64,000 bases of DNA from Dehalococcoidia bacterium (GCA_040882355.1 JBBEBM010000062.1:982-64981); one strand, 5' to 3'; numbered from the stretch's first letter, positions 1,085 through 50,205 are shown. A program made the numbers and translations. The notes: generated by a model from the letters alone, not told the origin.

Positions 1085-1101
1085 CCGCTCGATCGACGCA
1101 G

Positions 1102-5952: not shown

Positions 5953-5958
5953 CCCGGC

Positions 5959-20135: not shown

Positions 20136-22582
20136 GCCCGCCCGCCCGCCGCGCCGCGGCCGCAACTCCGCCCGTCGAGGCGCTGCGCAAAGTGCTGGCG
20201 CTGGAGCGCCAGCGCGGCTGCAACAACAGCGCCGTCTACGGTGGCCTGGACGGCTTCCTACACAACCTGCTGGGCGCGGACGGCTTCCCGCCCGACTCGC
20301 CCGTCGGGCAGGCGATCGGCTCGCTGCCGGAGGGCGGTTACGCGCGCCTCTCCGTCGCCGACCGGCAGGCATGGCTCGATGGCGCGTTGGCCGCCGCCGC
20401 TGGGCGCGCCGCTCCTGCCGCTCCGGTAGCCAAGCCGGCCCCTCGCGCGCGCCCCGCAGCGACGGAGGAGCGCCAGGCGCCCGTGGACGCGCCGGTGACG
20501 GTGCTCAAGGGAGTGAAGGATGCGCTGGCGGCGCGCTTCGAAAAGCTGGACGTGCGCACCGTTCGCGATCTGCTCTACCTCTTCCCGCGCCGCCACAGCG
20601 ACTTCGGGCGGCTGCGGCAGATTGCCGAGCTGACGCCGGGCTCCGAGGAGACCGTGCGGGCGCGCATCTGGAGCGCCCACGAGACGCAGCTCGGCCGTCG
20701 CAAAGGCACGGAGGCGACGGTGGGCGACGAGTCGGGCATGATGCGCGTCGTCTGGTTCAACAACCCCTACGTCGCGCGCCAGCTCCGCACCAACGAAGAG
20801 ATCGTCCTTGCCGGCCGCGTTGCTCTCCACCAGGGCCGGCCGACCTTCGAGAACCCGGAGTGGGAGCTGTGGGAGGCGAACGAGGAGCTGACGCACACCG
20901 GACGCCTGGTGCCCGTCTACCCGCTCACCAGCGGGCTCTCCGGTCGCACTGTGCGGCGCGTCGCCCGCCAGGCGCTCGACGGCTACGCGGACGCGCTCGC
21001 CGACCCGCTGCCTCAGTCGCTCCGCAAGCGGCTCAACCTGCTCGACCTGCCGGACGCGGTGCGCCAGGCGCACTACCCGGAGAGCCAGGAAGCCGTCGAA
21101 GAGGCGCGACGCCGCCTGGCGCTGGATGAGCTGCTGCCGCTTCAACTCTCGGTGCTGCTCCGCCGCCGTCAGTGGCAGCAGCCGGGCGCCGCCGACGCGA
21201 TCCGCATCGAGCCGGAGACGCTCGACTCGTTCCTGGCGACCCTGCCGTACGCGCTCACGGGCGCGCAAGAGAAGGCGCTACGTCAGCTCGTGGACGACCT
21301 GTCGCGCGACGTGCCGATGAGCCGCCTGCTCCAGGGCGACGTGGGCAGCGGCAAGACAGTGGTGGGCGCGTGCGGCCTCCTCGCGGCCGTGGTCAGCGGG
21401 CATCAGGCCGTCTTTATGGCGCCGACCGAGATCCTCGCCGAACAGCACTTTCGCACGCTCCGCGAGATCTTCGGCGCAGGGGAGAGTGAGGACACCGTCG
21501 TCGAAGCGACGCCGGCGTACCTCGATCGTCCGCTGCGCATCGCACTGCTCACAGGCAGCGTTCGCGCGAAGCAGAAGGCCGAGCTGTACGAACGCATCGA
21601 GCGAGGCGAGATCGACATCGCCGTCGGCACACACGCGCTGATCCAGCAGGGCGTTACGTTCGAGCGGCTCGGCTTCGTCATTGTCGACGAGCAGCACCGC
21701 TTCGGCGTCATGCAACGCGCGGCGCTCCGCAGCAAGGCCGCGCGTTCGGCGCACATGCTGGTGATGACCGCGACGCCGATCCCGCGTTCCCTCTACCTCA
21801 CGCTCTACGGCGACCTCGACGTCTCCGTAATCGATGAGATGCCGCCCGGCCGCAAGCCTGTCGTCACGCGTTGGTGGCCGCCCGAGCGCCGCCAGGACGC
21901 CTACGACTTCCTCCGCGAGCAGGTGGAGGCGGGTCGCCAGGCGTTCGTGATCTGCCCGCTGGTCGAGGAGTCGGAGTCGCTCCAGGTGAAAGCGGCGGTG
22001 CAGGAGTACGAGCGGCTCCGCTCGGACGTGTACCCGGACCTCGAGCTGGAGCTGGTGCACGGGCGCATGTCCGGCCGCGACAAGGACGCGGCGATGCGCC
22101 GCTTCCGCGAAGGCGCGGCGCAAGTGCTCGTGTCGACCGCGGTGGTGGAGGTGGGGATCGACGTGCCGAACGCGAGCGTCATGCTCATCGAGGGCGCCGA
22201 TCGCTTCGGGCTGGCGCAGCTCCACCAGTTCCGCGGCCGCGTCGGGCGGGGCGGCGACCAATCGTATTGCCTGCTGCTTGCCGAGAGCCCGTCGTCGGAG
22301 GCGCAGCAGCGGCTGCGGCTGATGGAGGAGACGACGGACGGCTTCCGCCTGGCGGAGGCGGACCTCCGCATGCGCGGGCCCGGCGAGTTCTTCGGCACGC
22401 GTCAGTCCGGACTGCCGGACTTCCGCGTCGCCAGCCTGCTCGACACGCGGCTCATCGAGCTGGCCCGCGAGGAGGCGGCGCGCTTGTTGGAGGAAGACCC
22501 GCATCTCGATAAACCGGAGCACGCGGCCCTTGCGCGCGACGTGACTCGCCTGTTTCAGCAGGTGACCGGTGAAGTACACTAA
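20132..22582 (+). CDS. recG: ATP-dependent DNA helicase RecG
   Basis: 816 aa. Wedge domain plus SF2 helicase motifs GDVGSGKT, DEQHRFGV, TATPIPR, QFRGRVGRG. ATGA overlap with degV. Confidence 0.9.
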   Translation: MSPPARRAAAATPPVEALRKVLALERQRGCNNSAVYGGLDGFLHNLLGADGFPPDSPVGQAIGSLPEGGYARLSVADRQAWLDGALAAAAGRAAPAAPVAKPAPRARPAATEERQAPVDAPVTVLKGVKDALAARFEKLDVRTVRDLLYLFPRRHSDFGRLRQIAELTPGSEETVRARIWSAHETQLGRRKGTEATVGDESGMMRVVWFNNPYVARQLRTNEEIVLAGRVALHQGRPTFENPEWELWEANEELTHTGRLVPVYPLTSGLSGRTVRRVARQALDGYADALADPLPQSLRKRLNLLDLPDAVRQAHYPESQEAVEEARRRLALDELLPLQLSVLLRRRQWQQPGAADAIRIEPETLDSFLATLPYALTGAQEKALRQLVDDLSRDVPMSRLLQGDVGSGKTVVGACGLLAAVVSGHQAVFMAPTEILAEQHFRTLREIFGAGESEDTVVEATPAYLDRPLRIALLTGSVRAKQKAELYERIERGEIDIAVGTHALIQQGVTFERLGFVIVDEQHRFGVMQRAALRSKAARSAHMLVMTATPIPRSLYLTLYGDLDVSVIDEMPPGRKPVVTRWWPPERRQDAYDFLREQVEAGRQAFVICPLVEESESLQVKAAVQEYERLRSDVYPDLELELVHGRMSGRDKDAAMRRFREGAAQVLVSTAVVEVGIDVPNASVMLIEGADRFGLAQLHQFRGRVGRGGDQSYCLLLAESPSSEAQQRLRLMEETTDGFRLAEADLRMRGPGEFFGTRQSGLPDFRVASLLDTRLIELAREEAARLLEEDPHLDKPEHAALARDVTRLFQQVTGEVH

Positions 22583-22588
22583 CGCCGC

Positions 22589-24133
22589 ATGCGTGAGCTG
22601 ATGCGCGCCGGCGAGAGCCCGGCGGATGGTCCGCCTCCCCACCTCACCCAACAGGCCCCAATCGTTGTAGAGGCTCCTCCTGGTGAGCCGCTGCAGGCGC
22701 GCAGGCGGTGGCCGAGCGCGAACGCGCGCTGGCTCCTGCTCGTGCTCGCCGTCGCCCTGCTGGTGCGAGTCGCCTGGGTGGCGACGGTTCAACCTGACCC
22801 TCGCGACGGCCGCTTCGACGATAGCGTCTGGTATTACAGCACCGGGCGGCTCCTCGCCGACGGCGAGGGATACGTCTATCCGCTCGATGCGCTCTGCGAT
22901 CTAGGGCAGAGGCGAGACCCAGGTATCGACTGCGCCGCCGACCCGCCGCCGACGGCGCTATGGGCGCCTGGCTACCCCCTTGTCCTATCCGCGCTCTTTC
23001 ATCTGCCCGGCGACGATGTGGCGTGGGGCCGCGCCCTCAACGTCGCGGCGGGGCTGGCGCTGGTCTGCGCCGTCTACTACCTGGGCTCGCGCCTCTGGAG
23101 CCCTCGCGCCGGCTTGCTGGCAGCGGCGATCGTCGCGCTCTTCCCAAGCCACATCTTCTTCTCCAGCCTGCTCATGACCGAACCGCTCTTCGCTGCCATG
23201 CTGGCGGGTGCGCTCTGCCTGGCGCTGGCATGGACGATGGAGCGCGACGCTCCGAAATGGAAGCTCATTGGGCTGGGGTTGGCGATCGGAACGCTGGCGA
23301 TGGTGCGCCCCGAAGCCGGCATATTGGTGGCGGTGTTCGCCGCGGTCTGGTTCATGCTCCACCCCTCATGGCGGTGGCTCGGGCAGCGGCTCGCGCTGCT
23401 GGCGCTCGGGATGGCGGTGCTGCTCGTGCCCTGGACGGCGCGCAACTGGGCGGAGATGGGCTCGCCCATCGTCGGCACGACCGGGTTGGGCCAGGTGTTG
23501 CTGCAGGCGCACCACCCGCGGGCGGGCGGCCAGCCAAACATAGGCATCGTGGACAACCTCTGGGACCAGTACAAAGGCACCGCCCTCCCCGAACGGGAGG
23601 TGCGCATGAACAGCTTCGGGGTGCGCGAGTCGATCGCGTATGCCGTGAAGCATCCCTGGAGCGACCTCAGCCGGGTCCCGGACCGGTTTGCCGCCTTCTA
23701 CAGAGGTGACCGCGGAGCGATCCAGTGGAACCAGGTGAGCGATGGAGACGGCAAGCAACTCCTCGCGTCCTCAGCGGACGGGTGGGGGCTCCTCTCCGAC
23801 ATCTACTACTACACGATCATCGGCTGCGCGGTTGTCTGCCTTCCTTTCTGGCTGCGTCGCGCCCGCGCCCAACACGGGCTCATCTTTGGCCCCTTCGCGA
23901 TCTACAGCCTGCTCTGGGCCTTCGTGTTCGTCGGCGAGGCGCGCTACCACTTCCCGCTCGTGCCGGTCTTTGCCGTGACCGCCGGCATCGGTCTGGCAGC
24001 ACTCACGGAGCGCTCGTTCGGCGGTCGGCGCGCGGCAGAGCGAGCGAGCCCTGCACTCCCCGCGCCGGTGCCTGTGCCGGAAGGCGTGTATACTCTCCTG
24101 CGAGGGCAAGAGCATGATGCTGACGGTCGGTAG
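22589..24133 (+). CDS. GT39/ArnT-like polytopic membrane glycosyltransferase (paralog of 31321-32715)
   Basis: Same loop motif as its paralog (VQPDPRDGRFDDSVWYYSTG ... ALWAPGYP ... ALFPSHIFFSSLLMTEPLFA). Confidence 0.7.
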   Translation: MRELMRAGESPADGPPPHLTQQAPIVVEAPPGEPLQARRRWPSANARWLLLVLAVALLVRVAWVATVQPDPRDGRFDDSVWYYSTGRLLADGEGYVYPLDALCDLGQRRDPGIDCAADPPPTALWAPGYPLVLSALFHLPGDDVAWGRALNVAAGLALVCAVYYLGSRLWSPRAGLLAAAIVALFPSHIFFSSLLMTEPLFAAMLAGALCLALAWTMERDAPKWKLIGLGLAIGTLAMVRPEAGILVAVFAAVWFMLHPSWRWLGQRLALLALGMAVLLVPWTARNWAEMGSPIVGTTGLGQVLLQAHHPRAGGQPNIGIVDNLWDQYKGTALPEREVRMNSFGVRESIAYAVKHPWSDLSRVPDRFAAFYRGDRGAIQWNQVSDGDGKQLLASSADGWGLLSDIYYYTIIGCAVVCLPFWLRRARAQHGLIFGPFAIYSLLWAFVFVGEARYHFPLVPVFAVTAGIGLAALTERSFGGRRAAERASPALPAPVPVPEGVYTLLRGQEHDADGR

Positions 24134-24148
24134 GCGAGGCGCGGCGAG

Positions 24149-24838
24149 GTGGTGATGGCAGCAGCCGTCGTTCGCGTGGAGCGCCAGCGATTGGAGGGCC
24201 TCGTCGCCCGTCTGGGCCACGACGACACGCCCCGCGTGTACACCGATCGAAACGTGCTCGTGCGCGAGCTGTTCTGGCGACGGCTGGGCGCGCTGCTCTC
24301 GCTCTCGCGAGCGCCTTCGCGGGCCAGAGTGCTGGACTTCGGTGGGGGCAACGGCGTGCTGATGCCCACCCTCTCCCGCCTCTACGACGAGGTGGTCTGT
24401 GTGGACCTGCGGACCGAGATGGCGGAGGAGCTCGCCCGCGCCGATGGCATCGCCAACGCGAAGATACAAGCAGGGGAGCTAAGCTCTCTTGGTCTACCCG
24501 GCGATTCCTGCGACACGATCATCGCAGCCGATGTGCTGGAGCACATCGTGGACCTGAAGGCGTTGATCGCCGAGTTCCGGCGGCTGCTGAAGCCAGGTGG
24601 CGAGCTGCTGGTGAGTGCGCCGTCTGAGAACGCCTTCTACGAGCTTGGCCGCAAGGTGTTTCGCTACGTCAAGCCGGACGACCACTATCACACCGCTGCG
24701 TTCATCGAGCGGACGATTACGGACGACCTGCGCCTGGCTTCACGACGGTACTTTCCTTTCAACCTGTCGCCGCTCGCGGTGTTCTCGCTCGCTCGCTTCG
24801 TGAAGCCGGACTCAGGCGCGGGGGTGCGGGAAACGTGA
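24149..24838 (+). CDS. Class I SAM-dependent methyltransferase
   Basis: VLDFGGGNG motif I, DVLEH, LLKPGGELLVSAP. GTG start. Confidence 0.7.
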   Translation: MVMAAAVVRVERQRLEGLVARLGHDDTPRVYTDRNVLVRELFWRRLGALLSLSRAPSRARVLDFGGGNGVLMPTLSRLYDEVVCVDLRTEMAEELARADGIANAKIQAGELSSLGLPGDSCDTIIAADVLEHIVDLKALIAEFRRLLKPGGELLVSAPSENAFYELGRKVFRYVKPDDHYHTAAFIERTITDDLRLASRRYFPFNLSPLAVFSLARFVKPDSGAGVRET

Positions 24839-25572
24839 CAGGCCGGAGCGGACCCCGCCGGAGGGCGGAAGCCCTGGTGCTGATACCCGTCTACAACGAA
24901 GCGGAAGCGCTGCCCGGGCTGCTGGAGGAGCTGCGCGAGCAGGCGCCGTCGTGCGACGTGCTGGTGATAAACGACGCGTCGACCGATGACAGCGCCGCTG
25001 TCGCCCGTGCCGCCGGCTTTCCAGTGCTGGACCTCTGCCTGAACCTCGGCATTGGGGGTGCGGTGCAGGCCGGCTTCAGGTACGCCCTGGAGCACGGCTA
25101 CGAGATCGCCGTCCAGGTCGACGGCGATGGCCAGCACCCTCCGAGCGCGATCGAGCAGATCGTGGCGCCGGTCCGAGCCGGCGCTTGCGAGATGACGATC
25201 GGCTCGCGCTTTCTGGATGCTGAGCACGACGGGGACTTTCTTCGCCGGCAGGGCACGCGCCTGCTCTCCTGGCTCTGCACGCTCTTCACCGGCCAGCGCA
25301 TCACAGACGCGACGTCGGGCTTCCGCGCATACGGCCACCAGGCGCTCCGCTATCTGGCCGCGTACTACCCGGCCGACTACCCCGAACCGGAGGCGATCGT
25401 CTTGTTGCGCCGGCGCGGCCTTACCATTCAGGAGGTGCCCGTGCGCATGCGACCCAGACAGGGGGGGCGGTCCTCCATCAAGGGCCTTCAGGCCGTCTAC
25501 TACATGGCCAAGGTGAGTCTGGCCCTGTTGCTGGCGGTCTTCAAACAGGGAACGGCCCGCCAGCCAGTCTAG
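24835..25572 (+). CDS. GT2 glycosyltransferase, Dpm1/GtrB-like polyprenol-phosphate sugar synthase
   Basis: LVLIPVYNEAEAL, VINDASTDDS, QVDGDGQHPP (DxD region). GTG start overlaps the upstream TGA. Confidence 0.85.
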   Translation: MTGRSGPRRRAEALVLIPVYNEAEALPGLLEELREQAPSCDVLVINDASTDDSAAVARAAGFPVLDLCLNLGIGGAVQAGFRYALEHGYEIAVQVDGDGQHPPSAIEQIVAPVRAGACEMTIGSRFLDAEHDGDFLRRQGTRLLSWLCTLFTGQRITDATSGFRAYGHQALRYLAAYYPADYPEPEAIVLLRRRGLTIQEVPVRMRPRQGGRSSIKGLQAVYYMAKVSLALLLAVFKQGTARQPV

Positions 25573-25584
25573 GGAGGTGGTGGT

Positions 25585-25986
25585 GTGCGTCCCATCAACC
25601 TGCTCATCATCATTGTCGCGGTGGGCGTCGCCGCCACCGTCGTGTTCTACGTGCGCCGGTGGCGGCTGAAGGAGCAGTACTCGCTGCTCTGGCTGATCCT
25701 GGCGGTGGGGATGGTCGTGCTGGCGGCGGCCCCGGAGCTTGTTGAGTGGTTTGCCGCCAAGCTGGACGTCTACTACGCGCCGTCCATCCTCTTCTTCCTG
25801 GGCCTCGCCTTCGTCGCGGTCATGCTCTTCCACTACTCCCTGGAGATATCACGCCTGTCCGACCAGAACCGAGAACTGGCGCAAGAACTCGGCCTGCTCA
25901 GGGCCCGGCTCGAAGAGACGGCGGCGGCGGCGCCTCCGTTCAAAGACGAGCCGTTGACCGAGGGGCCCGCAGGTGGCGCAGGTTGA
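25585..25986 (+). CDS. DUF2304-family small membrane protein (usual partner of Dpm1-like GT2)
   Basis: 133 aa, 3-4 TM, signature RRWRLKEQYSLLWL ... YYAPSILFFLGLAF ... LEISRLSDQNRELAQEL. Confidence 0.7.
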   Translation: MRPINLLIIIVAVGVAATVVFYVRRWRLKEQYSLLWLILAVGMVVLAAAPELVEWFAAKLDVYYAPSILFFLGLAFVAVMLFHYSLEISRLSDQNRELAQELGLLRARLEETAAAAPPFKDEPLTEGPAGGAG

Positions 25987-26027
25987 GGTGGACGGCGCCG
26001 GGTGCCAGGCCCCGCTACTGATCGCGC

Positions 26028-27680
26028 ATGTCCTTCCCGATCTACGTCCTGACCAGCCTCCTCATCTCCGCAGCGACCATGGGTCTCGTCCTGCTCGCGC
26101 GCAAGCGCTGGATGGCGGTCGCCGCCGCGCTCGTTGGCGCGACCGGGCTGCTCCTCCTGCACGGGCCAGCCTACTTCCACTTCTTCGCTGACGACTCGTA
26201 CATCAGCCTGCGCTATGCGCGCCACCTCGCGGACGGTCTCGGCCCGAACTGGAACAGCGAGGGCCGCGTCGAGGGTTACACGAACTTCCTCTGGATGGCG
26301 ACGCTCGCCGGCGTCGCGAAGCTCGGCGGCGACCTCGTCGACTCGGCGCGCGCCTTCGGCTTCCTGTCGCTGCTCGCCACGATCGTGGCCGTCTACCTGA
26401 TCTGGCAGCTCTGGGCGGACGACGATCCGGAGAGCGGTGTCGCGAGCCCGGTAGTGCTCGCCGCGGCGCTGATCGGGATCGCTCTCACGGATGGTGTCGT
26501 GTTCTGGGGCTTCTCTGGCATGGAGACGCCGCTCTTCATGGCGCTGATCACCGGCGGCGCGTATTGCTACCTGCGCGAGCGGCGCGGGGCGGGCCTCGTT
26601 CCCTGGTCGGCCGTCGTCTTCGCCGCCGCCGCGATGACGCGCCCGGAAGGCGTGCTGGCGGCCGCCGTTACCGGCGCGTTCGTGCTGGGCGAGGCGCTGT
26701 CGGGCGGCGACCGGCGGGCGCGCGCGCGCGTCTTGTTCTGGGCCGCCGTCTTCGCGGCCCTATACGGTTCGTACTTCCTCTGGCGCTACAGCTATTACGG
26801 GTACCTCTTCCCAAACACGTTTTACGCCAAGGCCGGCGCCACCAGCGCTGTCTTCGATCGCGGCCTCAACTACGTCTGGGTCTACGGGCTCCGCTATCAG
26901 CTCCTGGCGCTGGCCGCGGGCGTGACCGCGCTCCTGCTGAGGGCGCGCCTGCGCGTGGATGCGGCGTACGTGCTGGCGCTAACCGCCGTGTTGCTCGCCG
27001 AAATCGTCTACGAAGGCGGCGACGGCTTCGGGCACGGGCGGTTCATCGTGCCGCTGCTCCCGCTTCTCTACCTGGGCGGCATCGCCGGAGGGGCGGTGGT
27101 GCTCAGGCGGCTGGCGCTCGCCCCTGTGCCGGCCGCGGCGTTGGCGACGGCTGTCCTGACGCTCGGCGCGATGTCCCTCACGCGCGCGTCCATCGACCCG
27201 AGCTTATCGCTTGAGGAGCGCTCCCAAGCCGATGGCAAGGAACTCTCGATCTGGCTTAGCGAACACACGCCGGAGGACTACACGATAGCCGCGTACGCCG
27301 TAGGCATCGTTGGCTACTACAGCGATCGTGACATCCTGGACCTGCTCGGCATCAACGACGCCACGATCGCGCACACGGATGTTTCCAATCTGGGCGCAGG
27401 CCTCGCCGGGCACGAGAAGTACAACACTGACTACGTGCTGGAGCGCGCGCGGCCCGAGCTGATCATTGCGGGCCTGGGCGAGCCCAGGAGGCTGACCGAA
27501 GAGCAGCTTCGTGCCAGGCTCAGCTCGCTGGCAGACGCTGATGTCCGATCACACCTCTTCACCTCGCCCAGGGTCTGGCAGCTCTACGACGTGCGCGCTG
27601 TGCAGATCGGCAACCGCTGGTTCCACCTGCTCCAGCGCGCGGACACGGTATCGGAGTGGCAGGCGCCGGACCTGTTCTAG
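26028..27680 (+). CDS. 550-aa polytopic membrane protein, putative GT-C-fold glycosyltransferase; paralog A
   Basis: About 11 TM. First-loop acidic motif FADDSYISLRYARHLADGLGPNWNSEGRVEGYTNFLW. C-terminal soluble domain. Highly similar to 29096-30748. Confidence 0.7.
   Translation: MSFPIYVLTSLLISAATMGLVLLARKRWMAVAAALVGATGLLLLHGPAYFHFFADDSYISLRYARHLADGLGPNWNSEGRVEGYTNFLWMATLAGVAKLGGDLVDSARAFGFLSLLATIVAVYLIWQLWADDDPESGVASPVVLAAALIGIALTDGVVFWGFSGMETPLFMALITGGAYCYLRERRGAGLVPWSAVVFAAAAMTRPEGVLAAAVTGAFVLGEALSGGDRRARARVLFWAAVFAALYGSYFLWRYSYYGYLFPNTFYAKAGATSAVFDRGLNYVWVYGLRYQLLALAAGVTALLLRARLRVDAAYVLALTAVLLAEIVYEGGDGFGHGRFIVPLLPLLYLGGIAGGAVVLRRLALAPVPAAALATAVLTLGAMSLTRASIDPSLSLEERSQADGKELSIWLSEHTPEDYTIAAYAVGIVGYYSDRDILDLLGINDATIAHTDVSNLGAGLAGHEKYNTDYVLERARPELIIAGLGEPRRLTEEQLRARLSSLADADVRSHLFTSPRVWQLYDVRAVQIGNRWFHLLQRADTVSEWQAPDLF
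26241..26755. repeat. 515-bp tract 100% identical to 29315-29829 (inside paralog A)
   Basis: Base-by-base comparison of the two copies. The flanking sequence is only about 85-93% identical. Confidence 0.85.
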
Positions 27681-27709
27681 GCTCCGGGGCGCCCTCAGTC
27701 ACGACGCCG

Positions 27710-28177
27710 CTAGCAAAACGTACCGAAGGCGGTTACGCTCACGAACCCATCGCCGTCCACGTCGGTATTCGGGTTGGCCGCCGGGGCCGCCAGCGGTGCG
27801 GCGCCGAAGTCCATCACCACCTCTCCAATGTCGCTCACGGAGACGATCCCGTTCTTGTTGACGTCGGATGCGGGGCAACCATTGCGTGGGATCGAGACCG
27901 TCGGCGGCAGGCAGAAGCCCGGGCCACCCACCATGGATACGATGATCCCAAGATCGCCCGAATTCACGAGACCGTCCTTGATCGCGGGAAAGCCTGCGAG
28001 CATGTCCACCTCAGGCGGGGCTGGGGGAATCGTCTGCCCGAAATACGATAGCTCGATGGCGACATCGTTGCCATCGACCTCGCCGTCGTTGTCCAGGTCG
28101 GGACAGCCTGGGCCCGCGGCCTGGGCGACACCTCGCGCCGGGTCTCGACTAGGGCTCCACAGCCTCCTATGTCCGGG
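27710..28177 (-). pseudogene. Second copy of the small dockerin-type repeat protein; no in-frame start or signal peptide found (possible truncated duplicate)
   Basis: Frame encodes ...CPDLDNDGEVDGNDVAIELSYFGQ ... DVNKNGIVSVSDIGEVVMDFG ... NPNTDVDGDGFVSVTAFGTFC*, about 90% nt identical to the copy at 28180-28689. Upstream in frame there is no ATG/GTG/TTG for about 50 codons. The listed 373-aa ORF extension overlaps the other copy out of frame and is judged spurious. Confidence 0.35.
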
Positions 28178-28179
28178 CC

Positions 28180-28689
28180 CTAGCAGGTGGTGCCAAACAT
28201 GACTACGGCCATGCCGATGTCTCCGACGCTGACGAATCCATCGCCCGAGATGTCGGTATTCGGGTTGGACACCGGGGCCGCCGGCGGTGCGGCGCCGAAG
28301 TCGGTCACCACTTCTCCAATGTCGCTCACGGAGACGATCCCGTCCTTGTTGACATCGGCTGCGGGGCAACCCTTGCGTGGGATCGACACAGTTGGCGGCA
28401 GGCAGAAGCCCGGGCCACCTCCGGCCGCGACAGCGGCCGAGATGTCCGAGACGGCGATAAACCCGTCCTTGATCAGATCGACCTCGGGTGGCGCCGGAGG
28501 AACGGACTGGCCAAGATACGTTGTTACGATACTGATGTCGTTCGTATCGACGTCGCCGTCGTTGTCGAGGTCGGCGCAGGGGGTGCCCGTGGCCCGAGCG
28601 ACACCTCCGCCGGCCGGCGCGACCAGACCGAGAAACGCCAGCGCAACGCCTGTCAGAATGAGAAAACATGCCGTCTTCATGACGACCAT
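28180..28689 (-). CDS. Small secreted protein with three dockerin-type (EF-hand-like Ca-binding) repeats
   Basis: ATG at 28689 preceded by GGAGA. Signal peptide MVVMKTACFLILTGVALAFLGLVAPAGGGVARA. Repeats DLDNDGDVDTNDISIVTTYLGQ, DVNKDGIVSVSDIGEVVTDFG, NPNTDISGDGFVSVGDIGMAVVMFG. Confidence 0.65.
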   Translation of the reverse strand: MVVMKTACFLILTGVALAFLGLVAPAGGGVARATGTPCADLDNDGDVDTNDISIVTTYLGQSVPPAPPEVDLIKDGFIAVSDISAAVAAGGGPGFCLPPTVSIPRKGCPAADVNKDGIVSVSDIGEVVTDFGAAPPAAPVSNPNTDISGDGFVSVGDIGMAVVMFGTTC

Positions 28690-29095
28690 TCCCTTTCTCC
28701 GCTCGCGCGCGCGAGCGGAACTTCCCACCAGGGGGCTTGGCAGGGCTATGGGAGCTGTGCAGAGGTGAGGGAAGGGGGTTGGCGCATGCGTACCTCCCTG
28801 CTGCGCGACCGTGGCCTGCCTGCGGACGCACAGATAGTAGTCCTCCGCGCCCGCGTTGTCAACCGCGACTCGCGCTACCGAATGCCTGTGCCCATCGATA
28901 CACTGCCGGTGTGAGGGTCGGCGCTTTCACATCTGCTCCACCAGGGACGATGTCCCCTGTCGCGGGCGTTCGACTGCCGGCGAACGCAGACAACGCGGTT
29001 AGGCCGCCCGCCAAATCCATGCGCCATGGAGCGGGCGTCCGCATGCGGCGCTCGTCGAGGCGACCGGCCGGCTCGAATGATGAGACTCTAGTCTG

Positions 29096-30748
29096 ATGTT
29101 GCAGTCCTTCCCTGTCCTCGTCCTGGCGAGCCTCCTCGTATCCGCTGCGACTATGGGCGCCGTCCTGCTCGCGCGCAAGCGTTGGATGGCGGTCGCCGCC
29201 GCGCTTGCGGGCGCGACAGGCTTGCTGCTCCTGCAGGGCCTTGGTTATTTCGACTTCGCCAACGATGACTCGTACATCAGCCTGCGCTACGCGCGCCATC
29301 TCGCCGACGGTCTTGGCCCGAACTGGAACAGCGAGGGCCGCGTCGAGGGTTACACGAACTTCCTCTGGATGGCGACGCTCGCCGGCGTCGCGAAGCTCGG
29401 CGGCGACCTCGTCGACTCGGCGCGCGCCTTCGGCTTCCTGTCGCTGCTCGCCACGATCGTGGCCGTCTACCTGATCTGGCAGCTCTGGGCGGACGACGAT
29501 CCGGAGAGCGGTGTCGCGAGCCCGGTAGTGCTCGCCGCGGCGCTGATCGGGATCGCTCTCACGGATGGTGTCGTGTTCTGGGGCTTCTCTGGCATGGAGA
29601 CGCCGCTCTTCATGGCGCTGATCACCGGCGGCGCGTATTGCTACCTGCGCGAGCGGCGCGGGGCGGGCCTCGTTCCCTGGTCGGCCGTCGTCTTCGCCGC
29701 CGCCGCGATGACGCGCCCGGAAGGCGTGCTGGCGGCCGCCGTTACCGGCGCGTTCGTGCTGGGCGAGGCGCTGTCGGGCGGCGACCGGCGGGCGCGCGCG
29801 CGCGTCTTGTTCTGGGCCGCCGTCTTCGCCGCCCTGTACGGTTCGTACTTCCTCTGGCGCTACAGCTACTACGGGTACCTCTTCCCGAACACGTTTTACG
29901 CCAAGACGGGGACGACGAACGACCTCTTCAACCGGGGCCTGGAGTACGTCTGGTTCTACGGGCTCCGCTATCAGCTCCTGGCGCTGGCCGCGGGCGTGAG
30001 CGCGCTCCTGCTGAGGGCGCGCCTGCGCGTGGACGCGGCGTACGTCCTGACTCTTTGCGGCGTTCTGCTCGCGGGGGTGGTCTATGAGGGCGCGGACAGC
30101 TTTCCGCACGGGCGGTTCATCGCGCCATTGGTGCCGCTCCTTTACCTGGCAGGCATCGCCGGAGGGGCGGTGGTGCTCAAGCGGCTGGCGCTCCCTGCCA
30201 GACCCGCGGCTGTCGTTGCGACAGTGCTGCTGACGCTCGCTGCCCTGTCGCTCGCCCGCACTTCCCTCCATCCTGGGCTCGCCGCAGAGAAGCAGCTCCA
30301 GAGGGACGGCATAGACCTATCTGTCTGGCTGAACGAGAACGCGCCTGAGGACTACACCATCGGCGCGTACGGCGTGGGAGTGGTCGGCTACTACATCGAC
30401 CGCGATATCCTGGACCTGCTCGGCCTCAACGACGTCAAGATCGCGCACACGGATGTTTCCAATCTGGGCGCAGGCCTCGCCGGCCACGAGAAGTCCAATC
30501 CGGACTACGTGCTGGAGGAAGCGCAGCCGGAGCTGATCATCCCCACCTTGGGCGATTTCGTCAGGCGCACCGAAGATCAGCTGCGAGAAGGCTTTGAGGG
30601 GCTGGCTGATGCGCGACGGTTGCTGCTGGCGGACGAGCGCCTTTGGGAGCGTTACGACGTCCGCGCTGTGAAGATCGGCAACCGCTGGTTCCACCTGCTC
30701 CAGCGCGCGGACACGGTCTCGGAGTGGCAGGCGCCCGGCCTCTTCTAG
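29096..30748 (+). CDS. 550-aa polytopic membrane protein, putative GT-C-fold glycosyltransferase; paralog B
   Basis: Same architecture and motifs as 26028-27680. The C-terminal third is more diverged and the last approximately 75 nt are near-identical again. Confidence 0.7.
   Translation: MLQSFPVLVLASLLVSAATMGAVLLARKRWMAVAAALAGATGLLLLQGLGYFDFANDDSYISLRYARHLADGLGPNWNSEGRVEGYTNFLWMATLAGVAKLGGDLVDSARAFGFLSLLATIVAVYLIWQLWADDDPESGVASPVVLAAALIGIALTDGVVFWGFSGMETPLFMALITGGAYCYLRERRGAGLVPWSAVVFAAAAMTRPEGVLAAAVTGAFVLGEALSGGDRRARARVLFWAAVFAALYGSYFLWRYSYYGYLFPNTFYAKTGTTNDLFNRGLEYVWFYGLRYQLLALAAGVSALLLRARLRVDAAYVLTLCGVLLAGVVYEGADSFPHGRFIAPLVPLLYLAGIAGGAVVLKRLALPARPAAVVATVLLTLAALSLARTSLHPGLAAEKQLQRDGIDLSVWLNENAPEDYTIGAYGVGVVGYYIDRDILDLLGLNDVKIAHTDVSNLGAGLAGHEKSNPDYVLEEAQPELIIPTLGDFVRRTEDQLREGFEGLADARRLLLADERLWERYDVRAVKIGNRWFHLLQRADTVSEWQAPGLF
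29315..29829. repeat. 515-bp tract 100% identical to 26241-26755 (inside paralog B)
   Basis: Direct comparison; see 26241-26755. Confidence 0.85.
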
Positions 30749-30793
30749 CCTCGTCCGCGACGGGCTGTCAACCCCCGGCGGAACGCTCGAGAC

Positions 30794-31324
30794 GTGGTCA
30801 TGCCATTCACGTTCCCAGCGGTTGCTGAGTATACTACCGGTGTGACCGGCCGCCGCGTTCATGTCTGCTCCACCAAGTACGACGGCTCCCCGCACTGGGA
30901 GTTCGACTCCTGGCTTGTGCATGAGGAAGGGGCGCTCCTCGTCACACATAACTTCGCCGGGCAGGAGCTGCAGACCTCGGACGGGCCATGGACCACACCC
31001 TACGACACCCGGAACCACTTCTGGGCCGACCGCTGGTACAACGTCATGCGCATGGACCTGCCCCAGGGCGGCGGGTTGTACGGCTGGTACTGCAACGTCA
31101 CCACCCCCGCCGTCTACGACGGCGAGTGCGTGCGCTACGCCGACCTTGACCTCGACCTGTTCGTGCCCGCTGAGGGCGAGCCACAGGTGCTGGACGAGGA
31201 CGAGTTCCTGGAGAATGGCGCGCGCATGGGGTACCCGCCGGATGTCGTCGACCAGGCGAGGCTCGCGCTCGACCGATTGGTCGCCCTGGCGGTCGGCGGC
31301 CGGTTTCCCTTCGATCGACGATGA
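30794..31324 (+). CDS. Conserved hypothetical protein, possibly DUF402/FomD-like nucleoside-diphosphate-compound hydrolase
   Basis: 176 aa with an acidic cluster (YADLDLDLFVP, LDEDEF) and WYxNV-like segment (GWYCNVTTP). The family call is a recollection, not verified. Confidence 0.45.
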   Translation: MVMPFTFPAVAEYTTGVTGRRVHVCSTKYDGSPHWEFDSWLVHEEGALLVTHNFAGQELQTSDGPWTTPYDTRNHFWADRWYNVMRMDLPQGGGLYGWYCNVTTPAVYDGECVRYADLDLDLFVPAEGEPQVLDEDEFLENGARMGYPPDVVDQARLALDRLVALAVGGRFPFDRR

Positions 31325-32715
31325 CCGCCCCAGGCGAGGCCGGCGCTTCGATAGGCGCCTTCGCGAACGGCGAGACCGCCCGCGCCGCACCCTGGGCGCC
31401 GGCCAGATGGTGGTCGCGGGAGATGGCGATGGTTGCCGCGATCGTCCTGCTCGGCGTGGCGCTGCGGGTGCTCTGGATCTCGTACGCGCAGCCCGATCCT
31501 AGCGACGGCCGTTTCGATGACTCGCGCTTCTATGACAACTTCGCTTCCAGGATTGCGAACTGGGAGGGCTATATCATGCCCGACGAGCCCGCCGAGCTGC
31601 AGTGGGCACCCGGGTACGCGGGCGGCTACCCTACGGCGGTCTGGCCGCCCGGCTACCCGGCCCTGCTGGCCGTCCCCTACAAGCTGTTCGGCCACGATCC
31701 TGCGTACGGACGCTTCATCAACGTCGCTGCGGCAGGCGTGAGCATCGCCCTCGTCTACGCGATCGGACAGCGCCTCTTTAGCAGGCAGGTCGGCCTGATC
31801 GCGGCGGCCTTGCTGGCGGTGTTCCCCGGTCAGATCTTCTTCGCGAGTCTCATCGTCACGGAGTCCGTGTTCACGACGTTGTTGCTGGCGCTCGTCTGGG
31901 TCCTGGTCGTGCTTAACGATGGTCCGCGCCCGCCTCCCGTGCTCGCCGCCGCGGGCGTGGGCCTCCTGCTCGGCGCGATGGCTCTCGTGCGCTCCGAAGG
32001 AGTCATGCTGGTGCTCGTCGCCCTGGCCTTCTGGCGCCTGCTGGTGCCGAGCTGGCGCGCGATGGCGCCGCACGCCGGGCTGCTCCTCCTGGGCACGGCG
32101 CTCGTCGTCGCGCCGTGGACCGTGCGAAACTACGTCACAATGGACGGCTTCGTGCTCACCTCCTCAGGTGGGTCGCATACCTTCTGGGCCGGCCATCACG
32201 CGGACATCTACGCCGATGGGGGTCTGGCAGACATCCGCGCTGCGCTCGAACGGGAACGCGAGTACGAGGAGCTGCCCTACCCCGAGCGCGAGCTCAGGTT
32301 CGAGCAAGACCTGCTGGAGGAAGCGCTCCGATACGCGGTTTCGCATCCGGGGATCGAGCTGAGGAACCTGGGCCTCAAGGCGTACTACCTGTTTCGTGAC
32401 GACGCCAGCGCCCTCGACTGGGTCCAGATCAAGCCCGTCATCCCGAAAGACGACGTGACCGTCCTCGCGGGCGTCGCCAACGGCGTCTACTACGTGGTGC
32501 TGCTGCTCGCTGTGTTGGGCCTGGCGCTTGACCGCCGGTGGCGCGACCGGCGACACGTCCTGTTGCTCCTCACGATGGCTGTTTGGGTGGCGACGCACCT
32601 GCTCTTCCTCCCCAACCCGCGCTACCACGCGCCCCTCATCCCAATCATCAGCCTCGCTGCCGCATGTGGAGCCGTGGCGATGTACGAGCGGCTCAGGTCA
32701 TCAAGCCGGCCGTAG
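31321..32715 (+). CDS. GT39/ArnT-like polytopic membrane glycosyltransferase (paralog of 22589-24133)
   Basis: ATG overlaps the upstream TGA (ATGA). Motifs AQPDPSDGRFDDSRFYDNF ... LQWAPGYAGGYP ... AVFPGQIFFASLIVTESVF parallel the paralog. Confidence 0.65.
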   Translation: MTAPGEAGASIGAFANGETARAAPWAPARWWSREMAMVAAIVLLGVALRVLWISYAQPDPSDGRFDDSRFYDNFASRIANWEGYIMPDEPAELQWAPGYAGGYPTAVWPPGYPALLAVPYKLFGHDPAYGRFINVAAAGVSIALVYAIGQRLFSRQVGLIAAALLAVFPGQIFFASLIVTESVFTTLLLALVWVLVVLNDGPRPPPVLAAAGVGLLLGAMALVRSEGVMLVLVALAFWRLLVPSWRAMAPHAGLLLLGTALVVAPWTVRNYVTMDGFVLTSSGGSHTFWAGHHADIYADGGLADIRAALEREREYEELPYPERELRFEQDLLEEALRYAVSHPGIELRNLGLKAYYLFRDDASALDWVQIKPVIPKDDVTVLAGVANGVYYVVLLLAVLGLALDRRWRDRRHVLLLLTMAVWVATHLLFLPNPRYHAPLIPIISLAAACGAVAMYERLRSSSRP

Positions 32716-32821
32716 CCTGGCCAGGCACGCAACACGCAGGCTGGAGAGAAGCCAGCGGATTGGGTATGCTCCCCGCGTAGCTCAGGCGACAGGCCGCGCT
32801 CGAAATGCGAGGACGATACGT

Positions 32822-33586
32822 ATGACTGAGAAGCAAACGCCACTCGCCGGGATCCCCAGCGACTGGAACTCGAACGTCCCATCGACCACCGAGTTTCAGG
32901 CAGGCGTTAACTGGGCGCACGACCGGCTCGTCGAGGAGCCGTGGGTGATCTCGAAGGTGCGTCCGGGCGAGCGAATCCTCGACATCGGCTCGGCCACGAG
33001 CCGCTATCTGGTCAAGTTCCCGTCCGACTGCGAGATCTACGGCATCGACATCCGGCCCGGGCCGCCGCAGCCCGGCGTCGCCCTCATGCGCGGCGATATC
33101 ATGCAGGCGCCGTTCCGGCCCGGCACGTTCGACACGATCACCTGCATCTCGACCATCGAGCACATGGGCTGCTTCGTCTACGGGCAGCACGTCGACCGCT
33201 TCGGCGACGAGGTTACGATGCGTCACATGCGGCTGCTGCTGCGACCCGGCGGGCGGCTCCTGCTGACGACCCCCTACGGCAAGGGCGCCGCCTACTCCTG
33301 GATCCGCATCTACAGTCCACGGATGTTCCAGCGGCTCATTGCCGGCTATCGAACGCGCTCGGTGGAGTACTATCGGCGCGATGGCGAGCGGTACGTCCCA
33401 TGCTCTCCCAGGGAGCTGCGCAACGCAGACATCGACATGCAAAAGCTGCGCTCTGACGGGATCATACTCACCGAGCTGACGCCTAGCGGCGGCCTCTCGT
33501 TCTTGCTCGGCCGCATCTCACTGCGCATCCGGCGCTTCTTGCATGAGCGCGCCGGCCGGCCCAAGTTCTGGATCGATCCGGCATGA
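32822..33586 (+). CDS. SAM-dependent methyltransferase-fold protein
   Basis: ILDIGSATSRY (motif I-like), IYGIDI, LLRPGGRLLLTTP. ATG at 32822 after GAGGA. The listed longer ORF start is upstream extension. Confidence 0.6.
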   Translation: MTEKQTPLAGIPSDWNSNVPSTTEFQAGVNWAHDRLVEEPWVISKVRPGERILDIGSATSRYLVKFPSDCEIYGIDIRPGPPQPGVALMRGDIMQAPFRPGTFDTITCISTIEHMGCFVYGQHVDRFGDEVTMRHMRLLLRPGGRLLLTTPYGKGAAYSWIRIYSPRMFQRLIAGYRTRSVEYYRRDGERYVPCSPRELRNADIDMQKLRSDGIILTELTPSGGLSFLLGRISLRIRRFLHERAGRPKFWIDPA

Positions 33587-35244
33587 TCAAGCACGAGATC
33601 GCCCTCCTGGTCGATGAGGCCGTGCAGCGCGCGCGTGACGCGGGCGCCCTGCCTGGCGTCGCGATGCCCGAGACCGTGATCGAACGGCCGCAGCGCCCGG
33701 AGCACGGCGATTACGCTACCAGCTTGCCTCTGCGCCTCGCCCGCGCCGCCCGCGCGAACCCGATGGAGCTGGGCCAACGACTGGCGGGCCACGTTCCGGC
33801 TTCCGATGCCGTCGACCGCGTCGAGGTGGCGCCGCCCGGCTTCATCAACTTCCACCTCAACGAAGCGTGGCTCGCCCGCCAGGTCGAGACGATCATCGCT
33901 GCCGGCGCAGACTTCGCGCGGGCACCCGTTGGCCAGGGCCAGTTGGTGCAGGTGGAGTTCGTCAGCGCCAACCCCACGGGTCCCCTTCACGCCGGCAATG
34001 GACGCTGGGCGGCGATGGGCGGCGCGCTCGCCCGCGTGTTGCGCGTCGCCGGCTACAACGTTGAGACGGAGTACTACTTCAACGACGCCGGCAACCAGGT
34101 CGATGCCTTCGGGCGCACGCTCTACGCCCGCTACCAGCAGCTCTTCGGTCGCGAGGCGCCGGTGCCCGAGGACGGCTACGTCGGCCACTACATGGTCGAA
34201 CTGGCCGAGCAGGCGCGCGAGCGCTTCGGCGAGGACATGCTGCGGCCGCCAGGCGAACCGCCGCCCGACGAGCTGGCGCGCTTTGGCATCGAAGAGGTGA
34301 TGGCCTGGATCCGCCGCGACCTGGGAGACCTGGGCGTCCACTACGACCACTGGTACCAGGAGCAGACCGTGTTCGAGGCGGGCCACTTCGACAAGGTGAT
34401 GTCGCTCTTGCGCGAGAAGGGCCTCGTCGTCGAACGCGAGGGCGCCGTCTGGTTCGCCGCGACGCAGCTCGGCGCCGACAAGGACGAGGTGCTCGTGCGC
34501 TCCACCGGCGTGCCGACCTATCTCGCGACCGACATCGGCTACCACTACGACAAGTTCCTCGTGCGCGGCTTCGACCGCGTCGTCGACATCTGGGGCGCCG
34601 ACCACCAGGGCCACGTGCGGCCGCTCCAGCTCGCCGCTGAGGCGATGGGCCTCGAGCCCGAACGGCTGACGATCATCATCGGCCAGCTCGTCACCCTGCG
34701 CCGGGGCGACGAAGTGCTCAAGCTCTCGAAGCGCAGCGGCGACATCGTCACCCTGCGCGAGGTGATGGAGGAGGTGGGGAAGGACGCCTGCCTCTACTTC
34801 TTCCTCTCTCGGTCCGCCGACGTGTCGATCGACTTCGACCTGGAGCTGGCGAAGACGCAGAGCGCGGAGAACCCTGTCTACTACGTCCAGTACGCGCACG
34901 CGCGCATCGCCGGCATCCTGGAGAAGGCCGGCGAGAAGCTTGGCGACGCCGGCGGCGGTGACGTATCGCTGCTCACCCATCCGGCGGAGCTGGCGTTGGT
35001 GCGCAAGATGCTCGTGCTGCCGGAGCTGGTCGAGGCGATCGCGCGCACGCTGGAGCCGCACCACCTGCCCCACTACGCCCAGGACCTGGCGACCGCCTTC
35101 CACGATTTCTACGAGAAGTGCAAGGTCGTCGATGACGAGCAGCCGGAGCTCTCGAGGGCGCGGCTGAAGCTCGTCGCGGCAGCGAAGGCCGTGCTCGCCA
35201 CCACCCTCGACCTCATGGGCATGTCCGCTCCCGACAAGATGTAG
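33583..35244 (+). CDS. argS: Arginine--tRNA ligase
   Basis: 553 aa. Class I HIGH-region variant (SANPTGPLHAGNGR), anticodon-binding C-terminal DALR domain, ends ...PDKM. ATGA overlap with the upstream gene. Confidence 0.9.
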   Translation: MIKHEIALLVDEAVQRARDAGALPGVAMPETVIERPQRPEHGDYATSLPLRLARAARANPMELGQRLAGHVPASDAVDRVEVAPPGFINFHLNEAWLARQVETIIAAGADFARAPVGQGQLVQVEFVSANPTGPLHAGNGRWAAMGGALARVLRVAGYNVETEYYFNDAGNQVDAFGRTLYARYQQLFGREAPVPEDGYVGHYMVELAEQARERFGEDMLRPPGEPPPDELARFGIEEVMAWIRRDLGDLGVHYDHWYQEQTVFEAGHFDKVMSLLREKGLVVEREGAVWFAATQLGADKDEVLVRSTGVPTYLATDIGYHYDKFLVRGFDRVVDIWGADHQGHVRPLQLAAEAMGLEPERLTIIIGQLVTLRRGDEVLKLSKRSGDIVTLREVMEEVGKDACLYFFLSRSADVSIDFDLELAKTQSAENPVYYVQYAHARIAGILEKAGEKLGDAGGGDVSLLTHPAELALVRKMLVLPELVEAIARTLEPHHLPHYAQDLATAFHDFYEKCKVVDDEQPELSRARLKLVAAAKAVLATTLDLMGMSAPDKM

Positions 35245-35356: not shown

Positions 35357-36232
35357 ATGGTGGCACGGCCTCCGTCCATCGGCGCGACCGGGTTGACCCT
35401 GCTCGTGCTGTTCGGCGTGGCGGCCGTAATGGTTCTCCTGATCTCCGCGTCCCGCGAGCGCGCGTTCGCTGAGGGCAATCCCAATCCTTCGCCCGATCTC
35501 TCGATTCAGATCGACGCCGACGGCAACACCGTGCCTGACTGCGACACACGAGGGTCGCCGCCGGAGGGCACGTGCCTGGTGCGGGAGGGCGCCCCCTTCA
35601 CTGTGCAGGTCAGCGTGGACAGCATTCAAGGTGTCTACGACGGCGACAGCGACGGCACCGCCGGGTACACAGGCTATCGAATCGTGCTGCTGCACCCTGA
35701 GACCCTCGCCTTCCAGGACCGTGCTAATGACGGAGAGTTCCGCGACCAAGACGGCCAGCCGTTCTGGTCCTACCCGGGATCGTATACCTGCGTTGGCAGC
35801 GATGGCACGAGCGTCTATGTACATGAACTCCACTTCAGCGGCTATTGCGACGGTGACTATAAGAACGGCTTCGACTCGATTGAGTCCACGCACACCGGAG
35901 CGCTCCTGGAAGTGGACTTCACCTGCACTGCCCAGCCAATCGCCGATGCCGTATCGATGCCGCTCGGCTTTGACAGCTACCTCCAGGACGAGTACGGGAA
36001 GCCGTTCGGGGTTGATGAGAACGACAAGGGCGCGCCCGAGCTGCTTACGATCGACTGCACCCCGCCGTGGGACGTAAACGGAGACAGCGCCATCTCCGTG
36101 ACCGATATCGGCCTCGTAGTCTCCTCCTTCGGCCAAGTGTCGCCGCCTGTTCCGCCTGAGGTCGACGTCGATGGTAACGGCACTGTTTCGATTGGCGATC
36201 TAGGGTTGGTCGTAAGTCACTTCGGAGACTAG
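35357..36232 (+). CDS. Secreted/membrane-anchored protein with C-terminal dockerin-type repeat pair
   Basis: N-terminal signal anchor (LTLLVLFGVAAVMVLLISA), a Cys-containing beta-rich middle, and a C-terminus DVNGDSAISVTDIGLVVSSFGQ ... DVDGNGTVSIGDLGLVVSHFGD. Confidence 0.6.
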   Translation: MVARPPSIGATGLTLLVLFGVAAVMVLLISASRERAFAEGNPNPSPDLSIQIDADGNTVPDCDTRGSPPEGTCLVREGAPFTVQVSVDSIQGVYDGDSDGTAGYTGYRIVLLHPETLAFQDRANDGEFRDQDGQPFWSYPGSYTCVGSDGTSVYVHELHFSGYCDGDYKNGFDSIESTHTGALLEVDFTCTAQPIADAVSMPLGFDSYLQDEYGKPFGVDENDKGAPELLTIDCTPPWDVNGDSAISVTDIGLVVSSFGQVSPPVPPEVDVDGNGTVSIGDLGLVVSHFGD

Positions 36233-48286: not shown

Positions 48287-48289
48287 TCG

Positions 48290-50202: not shown

Positions 50203-50205
50203 CGA

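Follow-up and report, generated by a model that had tools for sequence, protein, structure and literature searches.

The 64,000-nucleotide (nt) stretch of DNA analyzed here (GCA_040882355.1 JBBEBM010000062.1:982-64981; hereafter the window) has a G+C content of ~68% and comes from a metagenome-assembled genome of a Dehalococcoidia bacterium (Chloroflexota) of soil or sediment type. Between recG and argS it carries 11 genes (22589–33586), most of them for adding sugars to the cell surface, and a reading made from the DNA alone (the sequence-only reading) had taken this interval to be one 11-kb envelope glycosylation island. Comparison with relatives leads us to a different view, to which we assign a probability of roughly 0.7: the region would be a mosaic, consisting of a backbone conserved in the clade (fakA, degV, recG, one or two AftB-like genes for glycosyltransferases of the GT-C fold class, DUF402 and argS) and three inserts. 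The proposed inserts are a module encoding a PMT_2-family GT-C, a methyltransferase, a GT2 glycosyltransferase and a DUF2304 protein; two dockerin genes in the reverse orientation, of which one encodes a secreted protein and the other is a truncated copy; and, between DUF402 and argS, a second, divergent PMT_2 GT-C gene with an unrelated methyltransferase gene. We know of no experimental work on the envelope glycans of Dehalococcoidia other than Dehalococcoides.

Gene order between recG and argS in the window and its relatives

The upstream backbone gene is recG (20132–22582, plus strand; RecG_wedge, DEAD, and Helicase_C domains) and the downstream one is argS (33583–35244, plus strand; Arg_tRNA_synt_N, tRNA-synt_1d, and DALR_1 domains). 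These domain matches bear out the flanks given by the sequence-only reading, and its gene order, coordinates and domains likewise held for all eleven genes. The dockerin genes, too, are where it had placed them, but both lie on the minus strand, and one copy is 5′-truncated.

In relatives, whose homologous loci are labeled with L-numbers (L004, L086, L096, etc.), a GT-C gene for a protein of ~550 amino acids (aa) is found directly 3′ of recG, and the recG-argS interval holds one or two such genes and DUF402, without GT2, DUF2304 or PMT_2 genes. A contig of Joint Genome Institute (JGI) metagenome 3300056388 has the order L28-fakA-degV-recG-GTC-GTC-DUF402-argS-inositol phosphatase, and RBG_16_68_14 has recG-GTC-GTC-DUF402-argS-inositol phosphatase, with the first GT-C gene interrupted by a run of N. 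At L005, recG and one GT-C gene are followed by ~9 kb of unrelated genes and then by DUF402-argS; DUF402 also adjoins argS at L004/L006. More distant homologues of the 550-aa GT-C occur in unrelated gene contexts. Since relatives carry the 550-aa GT-C genes and DUF402 between recG and argS, we regard the two AftB-like genes and DUF402 of the window as resident backbone genes. The comparison of island boundaries that had been proposed thus kept recG and argS as flanks but points to three separate insertions in place of the single island.

The tight packing of the interval is not informative in this respect. The 4-nt overlaps noted earlier at 24835 (GTGA, methyltransferase/GT2) and 31321 (ATGA, DUF402/second PMT_2) are present, as is a third at 33583 (ATGA, second methyltransferase/argS), but because fakA/degV and degV/recG are also joined by 4-nt overlaps, such junctions are not special to the glycosyltransferase region. 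A repeat scan for mobile-element signatures found no direct repeats flanking the inserts, no tRNA gene or Rfam family was found in the window, and a terminator scan gave results at or below chance expectation.

The backbone seems to have been rearranged elsewhere as well. In relatives, the genes immediately 5′ of fakA, in the same orientation as it, are rpe, argH, and a haloacid dehalogenase (HAD) hydrolase gene; in the window, these three genes (47591–50955, minus strand) are ~30 kb from fakA in the opposite orientation, and we infer from this shift and strand flip that the backbone was also rearranged in the lineage of the window.

A four-gene module that recurs beside rodA-pbp2

The first proposed insert begins only 6 nt after the end of recG. 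It comprises the first PMT_2 GT-C gene (22589–24133, plus strand; PF13231, 34.7 bits against a cut-off of 26.1), a class I S-adenosylmethionine (SAM)-dependent methyltransferase gene, MT1 (24149–24838, plus strand; Methyltransf_11, E 4.5e-17), the GT2 gene (24835–25572, plus strand; PF00535, 72 bits), and a gene for a small DUF2304 membrane protein (25585–25986, plus strand; PF10066, E 2.6e-25) whose start lies 12 nt after the GT2 stop.

The same genes recur in other Chloroflexi at a different site. In L087, L088 and L095, and partly in L086, we found the string aspS-polysaccharide deacetylase-<acetyltransferase-PMT_2-MT-GT2-DUF2304-GT-C-PMT_2-<rodA-<pbp2 (where < marks a gene on the opposite strand), which in L086–L088 extends to rodA-pbp2. 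GT2 is followed by DUF2304 in L087, L088 and L095, and DUF2304 by one or two further GT-C-sized genes. Individual loci vary: L088 has a Fic gene between PMT_2 and the rest of the module, and L086 (RBG_16_68_14) has PMT_2-MT, an uncalled stretch in which tblastn detects a partial GT2, and then two GT-C genes. The module proteins of relatives are 52–79% identical to those of the window. For the orthologues of the first PMT_2 protein that head the module, the figures are 54–61% (L086–L088) and 52% (L095), and for MT1 and the methyltransferase in the same position they are 67–72% (L086–L088 and L095); the 4-nt MT/GT2 overlap is also kept. Of the two GT-C proteins that relatives encode after DUF2304, neither has a counterpart in the window; they are members of another family. 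As L094 has GT-C genes beside rodA-pbp2-mreD without MT-GT2-DUF2304, this trio appears to be detachable. A separate module that elsewhere sits beside rodA-pbp2 does not fit the proposal of one island.

The junction between recG and the module was also found in an independent 3.7-kb metagenome contig (L096), in which recG is 95%, PMT_2 79%, MT 92% and GT2 88% identical to the window. Since L096 reproduces it, the recG/PMT_2 junction is evidently real and common to a close relative. Over the same stretch (window 20132–25572), the lower identity of the first PMT_2 protein than of RecG, MT and GT2 suggests that this surface-facing transferase may evolve faster than its neighbors.

At L086–L088, L094 and L095, two to three GT-C genes converge on rodA-pbp2 (with mreD in L094), and the last GT-C gene of the run overlaps the 3′ end of rodA by ~65–80 nt. 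GT-C genes together with the cell-elongation locus are a conserved association in related Chloroflexi, and we found no literature on such loci in this group. The four genes recurring beside rodA-pbp2-mreD make a concrete module that can be tested.

The PMT_2 proteins

The second PMT_2 GT-C gene (31321–32715, plus strand; PF13231, 46.2 bits) belongs to the third proposed insert. Its product is 34% identical to the first PMT_2 protein (E 1e-59), so that the two "GT39-like" enzymes do prove to be paralogous, as the sequence-only reading had them, and they are old paralogues. The closest relatives found for the second protein are only 42% identical; a metagenome scan for it returned three short loci at 36–42% identity, none with MT2, DUF402 or argS beside the gene, and we found no close orthologues of either the second PMT_2 protein or MT2. 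Comparison of the two PMT_2 proteins with the 550-aa GT-Cs gave no significant similarity (best E values, 0.025 and 0.11).

The more specific label, GT39/PMT-like, held only as a generic PMT_2/GT-C_A assignment. The Pfam PMT model (PF02366) matches the first protein alone, at a borderline 22.8 bits against 22.7, and the bacterial Pmt model (NCBIfam NF058602) gives 16 bits against a cut-off of 800 for the second and no match for the first. A search of the Protein Data Bank (PDB) with the single sequence of the first PMT_2 protein returned no match, and a family profile was needed. When its AlphaFold2 (AF2) model (predicted local distance difference test [pLDDT], 88) was compared by Foldseek, AglB/STT3 ranked first and ArnT 8th, ahead of Pmt4 (13th, E 5e-5), with Pmt1/2 28th or lower; ALG9 was also matched. 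A DD motif (D77, D78) follows the first transmembrane helix and is conserved over 37 homologues, with D77 nearly invariant and D78 invariant. Taken together, domain, profile and structure comparisons identify all four large membrane proteins of the interval as GT-C glycosyltransferases and not transporters.

A predicted lipid-linked sugar pathway

The GT2 protein (245 aa) is a short, Dpm1/PpgS/GacI-like form in which hydropathy shows a single hydrophobic segment, at the C terminus; the DUF2304 protein has three such segments. The best NCBIfam models for GT2 are AglJ (89 bits) and PpgS (77 bits, cut-off 370), both below their cut-offs, and its sequence matches in the PDB include ArnC (E 5e-11) and the Pyrococcus dolichyl-phosphate-mannose (Dol-P-Man) synthase DPMS (E 2e-9). 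In Streptococcus pyogenes, the GT2 enzyme GacI makes N-acetylglucosamine (GlcNAc)-P-undecaprenol, and GacJ, a DUF2304 protein, forms a complex with GacI that lowers the Km for undecaprenyl phosphate from 18.7 to 1.1 µM (~17-fold) and raises Vmax, and outside the membrane the GT-C protein GacL then attaches GlcNAc to polyrhamnose; in Mycobacterium tuberculosis, PpgS is stimulated by Rv3632 (bioRxiv 10.1101/180810). The assignment of GT2 and DUF2304 as a pair that makes a polyprenol-phosphate sugar is therefore of a documented type, GacI/GacJ and PpgS/Rv3632 being the precedents (bioRxiv 10.1101/180810).

By homology, GT2, held and stimulated by DUF2304, would move a sugar from a nucleotide sugar to polyprenyl phosphate on the cytoplasmic face of the membrane. 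The translationally coupled MT1 may, more speculatively, methylate the lipid-linked sugar, which a flippase encoded outside the cluster would then flip across the membrane. The first PMT_2 protein, via its extracytoplasmic DD motif, would attach the sugar either to a secreted protein or to a polymer of the wall. Streptococcal GT2 + GT-C systems glycosylate proteins, and similar systems decorate wall polymers or Ser/Thr-rich proteins (PMC12041528), so that the acceptor here could be of either kind. Lipid-carrier-dependent extracytoplasmic glycosylation would be the right description for the four-gene module and a plausible one for the other GT-Cs.

The resident AftB-like GT-C pair

GT-C A (26028–27680, plus strand; 550 aa) and its tandem paralogue GT-C B (29096–30748, plus strand; 550 aa), a pair recorded in NCBI as WEE64_12745 and WEE64_12760 on a contig of 68.5 kb, match no Pfam family and were recognized as GT-C proteins from structure and profile comparisons. 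A single-sequence PDB search with GT-C A returned no match, and here too a family profile was needed; searched against the PDB, this profile had AftB as its sole significant match (E 4e-13). The AF2 model of GT-C A, built from 38 homologues (pLDDT 88; predicted template modeling score, 0.90), shows a GT-C_A fold and, at its C terminus, an extracytoplasmic domain. Its nearest structure, and the top Foldseek hit, is AftB (9dlf_C, E 3.9e-9), with template modeling (TM) scores of 0.60–0.62 for 9dlf/9dlh (0.62 for 9dlh). In a hidden Markov model alignment, three residues that are invariant in the family, D56, R205 (of the RPE motif), and R338 (of the HGR motif), fall on AftB D62, R221, and R372. 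In AftB, D62 is the nucleophile, R221 and R372 stabilize phosphate, and activity is lost when any one of the three is mutated (PMC12041299). Part of the C-terminal domain, a short stretch, can likewise be aligned to AftB, although HMMER scores this segment as not significant. The AftB equivalog model NF041481 gives GT-C A 24 bits against a cut-off of 1050 and does not match GT-C B. Judged by sequence, the 550-aa proteins appear to be remote homologues of AftB and not its orthologues. The resident pair probably takes a sugar from a polyprenyl-phosphate donor and adds it to an extracytoplasmic glycan.

The family is very large (7,088 cluster representatives at 50% identity with E<=1e-30, and 21,492 with E<=1e-10), occurs in Chloroflexota, Myxococcota, Acidobacteriota, Ignavibacteria and other phyla, and lacks Pfam coverage; seven of nine distant members tested had no Pfam match. 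To our knowledge, no member has been characterized outside mycolate bacteria. It is a doubtful possibility that the family may work in the manner of AftB, using polyprenyl-phosphate donors to cap envelope glycans with pentofuranose or other sugars. If so, a chemistry thought typical of mycobacteria would be widespread, and the donor would be indicated by the new operon link, in the window, with a GacI/GacJ-type synthase. Genes of the decaprenyl-phospho-arabinose pathway (UbiA-type phosphoribosyltransferase, DprE1/E2) do not lie beside the window GT-Cs. The sole UbiA gene of the window is within a cytochrome oxidase (cox) cluster, and no UbiA-like neighbor recurs in 77 loci of distant homologues.

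The sequence-only reading had the GT2 product feeding GT-C A and B, which gene neighborhoods do not support: in a genome scan of 550-aa homologues (80 loci, 10 kb), a GT2 gene was nearby in 2 of 80, DUF2304 in 0 of 80, and a PMT_2 relative in 1 of 80. Neighbor clustering around the 77 distant homologues likewise brought out no donor-synthesis partner. The two largest neighbor clusters were rejected as antisense shadow open reading frames (ORFs) of the GT-C gene itself, and the recurrent true neighbors are a sulfatase (11 loci) and an ABC ATPase (9 loci). The sulfatase (PF00884), found within 6 kb of the AftB-like GT-C at L013, L021, L024, L027, L029, L048, L054, L056, L057, L069 and L078 (11/77), is the only recurrent neighbor of possible functional meaning.

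Duplications within the interval

GT-C A and B are 83% identical in amino acid sequence, and the N-terminal half, which is catalytic, is more alike (93%) than the C-terminal one (72%). A tract of 515 nt at 26241–26755 in GT-C A (plus strand) is 100% identical to 29315–29829 in GT-C B and encodes residues 72–242 of both proteins, while outside it nucleotide identity is 79.2%, indels included; the tract reflects either gene conversion or homogenization by the assembler. Tandem GT-C pairs in relatives show 52–66% identity between partners. For two assemblies, the copies are closer across assemblies (78% and 84%) than to their own tandem partner (61–63%), which argues for an old GT-C duplication.

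Within the interval, only GT-C A/B and the dockerin pair appear to be recent duplicates. MT1 and MT2 have no detectable pairwise similarity and would be unrelated beyond their shared fold class. Considering also the age of the PMT_2 pair, the interval was not duplicated internally as a block, as had been suggested.

The dockerin genes

A Pfam scan of plus-strand ORFs in 27656–29096 was empty, and plus-strand dockerin genes were rejected; the two genes are on the minus strand, between GT-C A and GT-C B. The dock2 gene (28180–28728, minus strand; NCBI WEE64_12755, 166 aa; Dockerin_1 in two stretches, 37.2 bits against 22.9) encodes, after a signal peptide, a set of four dockerin/EF-hand-like loops for calcium binding, with Pro/Ala-rich linkers that contain Ser/Thr. 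Only three other homologues were found. The dock1 ORF (27710–28210, minus strand; Dockerin_1, 36.4 bits against 22.9) forms a direct repeat with dock2 (72–90% identity), has no signal peptide in any frame and no credible start, and yielded no protein of its own in the homologue search. It is probably a 5′-truncated copy of dock2 and a pseudogene.

G+C content at third codon positions (GC3) is 0.75 in the dockerin genes compared to 0.81–0.92 in their neighbors. A promoter-like site 5′ of dock2 (28834–28862, minus strand; TTGACA-17-TACTAT) is a consensus match only, two such sites having been found where 1.4 were expected. We identified no cohesin partner for the window dockerins.

A further dockerin gene, dock3 (35357–36232, plus strand), encodes a signal anchor, a domain of ~200 aa of no known family, and a Dockerin_1 segment (20.9 bits). 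It lies between argS and an inositol monophosphatase gene, and because these two genes are adjacent in relatives, dock3 would represent one more inserted dockerin gene. The N-terminal domain of dock3 shows homology (33% identity, E 4e-16) with a 270-aa protein of L092/L093 that carries a signal peptide, is anchored at its C terminus and is encoded right after a dock2 homologue, which hints at a small dockerin-partner pair. The idea that this domain is a cohesin was rejected, as it has no Pfam match and no PDB sequence match. Also rejected was a 547-aa gene beside the dock2 homologue in L092/L093 as a relative of the 550-aa GT-Cs; it is divergent and unrelated.

DUF402 and the second methyltransferase

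The DUF402 protein (30794–31324, plus strand) had been described as possibly DUF402/FomD-like. The domain is present (PF04167, E 3.6e-16), but the FomD resemblance is not: FomD scores 15.7 bits against 320, compared to 67.8 against 280 for NtdP, the second-best model, and 74.7 against 213 for PRK13662. In the PDB, the protein matches 7d8g (Staphylococcus aureus SA1684; E 4e-15). It would be a housekeeping NtdP-like phosphatase tied to argS. The proposed role in nucleotide-sugar metabolism is not supported, the gene being syntenic with argS in genomes without glycosylation genes, and position alone should not draw it into glycan metabolism during annotation.

MT2 (32822–33586, plus strand), a class I methyltransferase of the DUF268/Methyltransf_23-like type, lies within an ORF at 32528–33586, and its likely start is the ATG at 32822.

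Other envelope genes in the window

A second group of envelope genes is located upstream, at 170–7926. It consists of genes for a UDP-glucose/GDP-mannose dehydrogenase (170–1084), a methyltransferase (2307–3167), a 610-aa multi-pass membrane protein with no Pfam match that is possibly another GT-C (3164–4996), an LPG_synthase_TM protein (4993–5952), and a 655-aa PMT_2 GT-C (5959–7926, minus strand).

Alternative explanations

Could the interval nevertheless work as a single 11-kb island, with one lipid-linked sugar serving all four GT-Cs, the two methyltransferases modifying it, and DUF402 serving nucleotide sugars? All genes except the two dockerins share one strand, with 4-nt overlaps or gaps of 6–106 nt, and the further GT-C genes after DUF2304 in relatives make it plausible that several GT-Cs share a donor. 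Those GT-Cs, however, are of the family that is unmatched in the window, DUF402 and the 550-aa GT-Cs stand between recG and argS in relatives without GT2, DUF2304 or PMT_2, and the 550-aa family is hardly ever near GT2 and never near DUF2304 in the loci scanned; the tight spacing extends to fakA, degV and recG, which makes it a property of the genome with no functional signal. We consider such an island unlikely, although it retains some weight, and for annotation the lesson is that tight packing in one direction does not make the genes between recG and argS a single functional island. Several points do weigh against the mosaic and the pathway proposed for its first insert. GT-C A starts 41 nt after DUF2304 on the same strand, so that in the window genome the GT2 product could be tied to GT-C A through an operon, though this is no habit of the family. 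Only a handful of close relatives were inspected, and all of the data compared, window and relatives alike, are metagenome assemblies. GT2 falls below the cut-off of all curated equivalog models, no flippase domain (GtrA/GtcA, Wzx or MATE) was found in the ORFs of 22589–33586 or in the other scanned ORFs of the window, and neither the sugar nor the acceptor can be read from the sequence.

Protein O-mannosylation of the PMT type would make GT2 a polyprenyl-phosphate mannose synthase and count the Pro/Ala-rich dockerin proteins among the PMT_2 substrates. Both proteins exceed the PMT_2 cut-off, with PF02366 borderline for the first, Dol-P-Man synthase is among the PDB matches of GT2, dock2 is secreted with Ser/Thr in its linkers, and protein glycosylation by streptococcal GT2 + GT-C systems is a precedent (PMC12041528). 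We nonetheless think this quite improbable: the Pmt equivalog is missed by a wide margin (16 bits against 800) or not matched at all, AglB/STT3 and ArnT are the nearest folds with Pmt4 only 13th, the module of relatives sits beside rodA-pbp2-mreD and a polysaccharide deacetylase gene with no dockerin genes, and the window dockerin genes differ in codon usage and have their own promoter-like site. That the duplication of GT-C A/B and the dockerins is an artefact, produced by misassembly of strain variants in the metagenome, seems very improbable indeed. A perfect 515-nt tract within genes that are otherwise 79% identical is unusual in a short-read contig and could be consensus homogenization, and dock1 is truncated exactly where it abuts dock2. 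But at least four other assemblies contain tandem GT-C pairs, the differences between A and B outside the tract amount to ~21% of positions, indels included, and the recG/PMT_2 junction recurs in an independent sample. A backbone with three inserts therefore continues to be the reading we favor.

Comparison with known systems

The module resembles GacI/GacJ/GacL and PpgS/Rv3632/Rv3779 in that GT2 is directly followed by DUF2304 and a GT-C transferase is encoded in the same operon, but it differs from both in the SAM methyltransferase gene between GT-C and GT2, which is coupled to GT2. Compared with GacI/GacJ/GacL, the window cluster also lacks a GacK-type flippase gene and belongs to a Chloroflexi host, and its GT2 lies far from the PpgS equivalog (77 bits against 370). 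ArnC/ArnT and GtrB/GtrC share with it the logic of a GT2 lipid-sugar synthase plus a GT-C. ArnC is the top PDB sequence match of the window GT2, ArnT is among the fold matches of both GT-C types, and JGI labels PMT_2 homologues "ArnT-like." In contrast, the lipid A target of ArnC/ArnT is not expected in the organism of the window, neither formyltransferase/deformylase genes nor a GtrA flippase are present, and ArnC and GtrB have two C-terminal transmembrane helices where the window GT2 has only one hydrophobic segment.

For the backbone genes, the DUF402 protein shares its domain with NtdP (SA1684, a nucleoside tri/diphosphatase; 7d8g) while scoring below the NtdP equivalog cut-off. The 550-aa GT-Cs compare best with AftB, the mycobacterial terminal beta-(1->2)-arabinofuranosyltransferase (PDB 9dlf/9dlh). 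GT-C A is only 20% identical to AftB and has an extra N-terminal helix, and many non-mycolate phyla have members of its family. The Asp of the DD motif and the two Arg residues that bind phosphate are nevertheless conserved, and both proteins have a C-terminal extracytoplasmic alpha/beta domain with a similar LGL-x-(D/N)-xxx-AHT...GH-(E/D)-K stretch.

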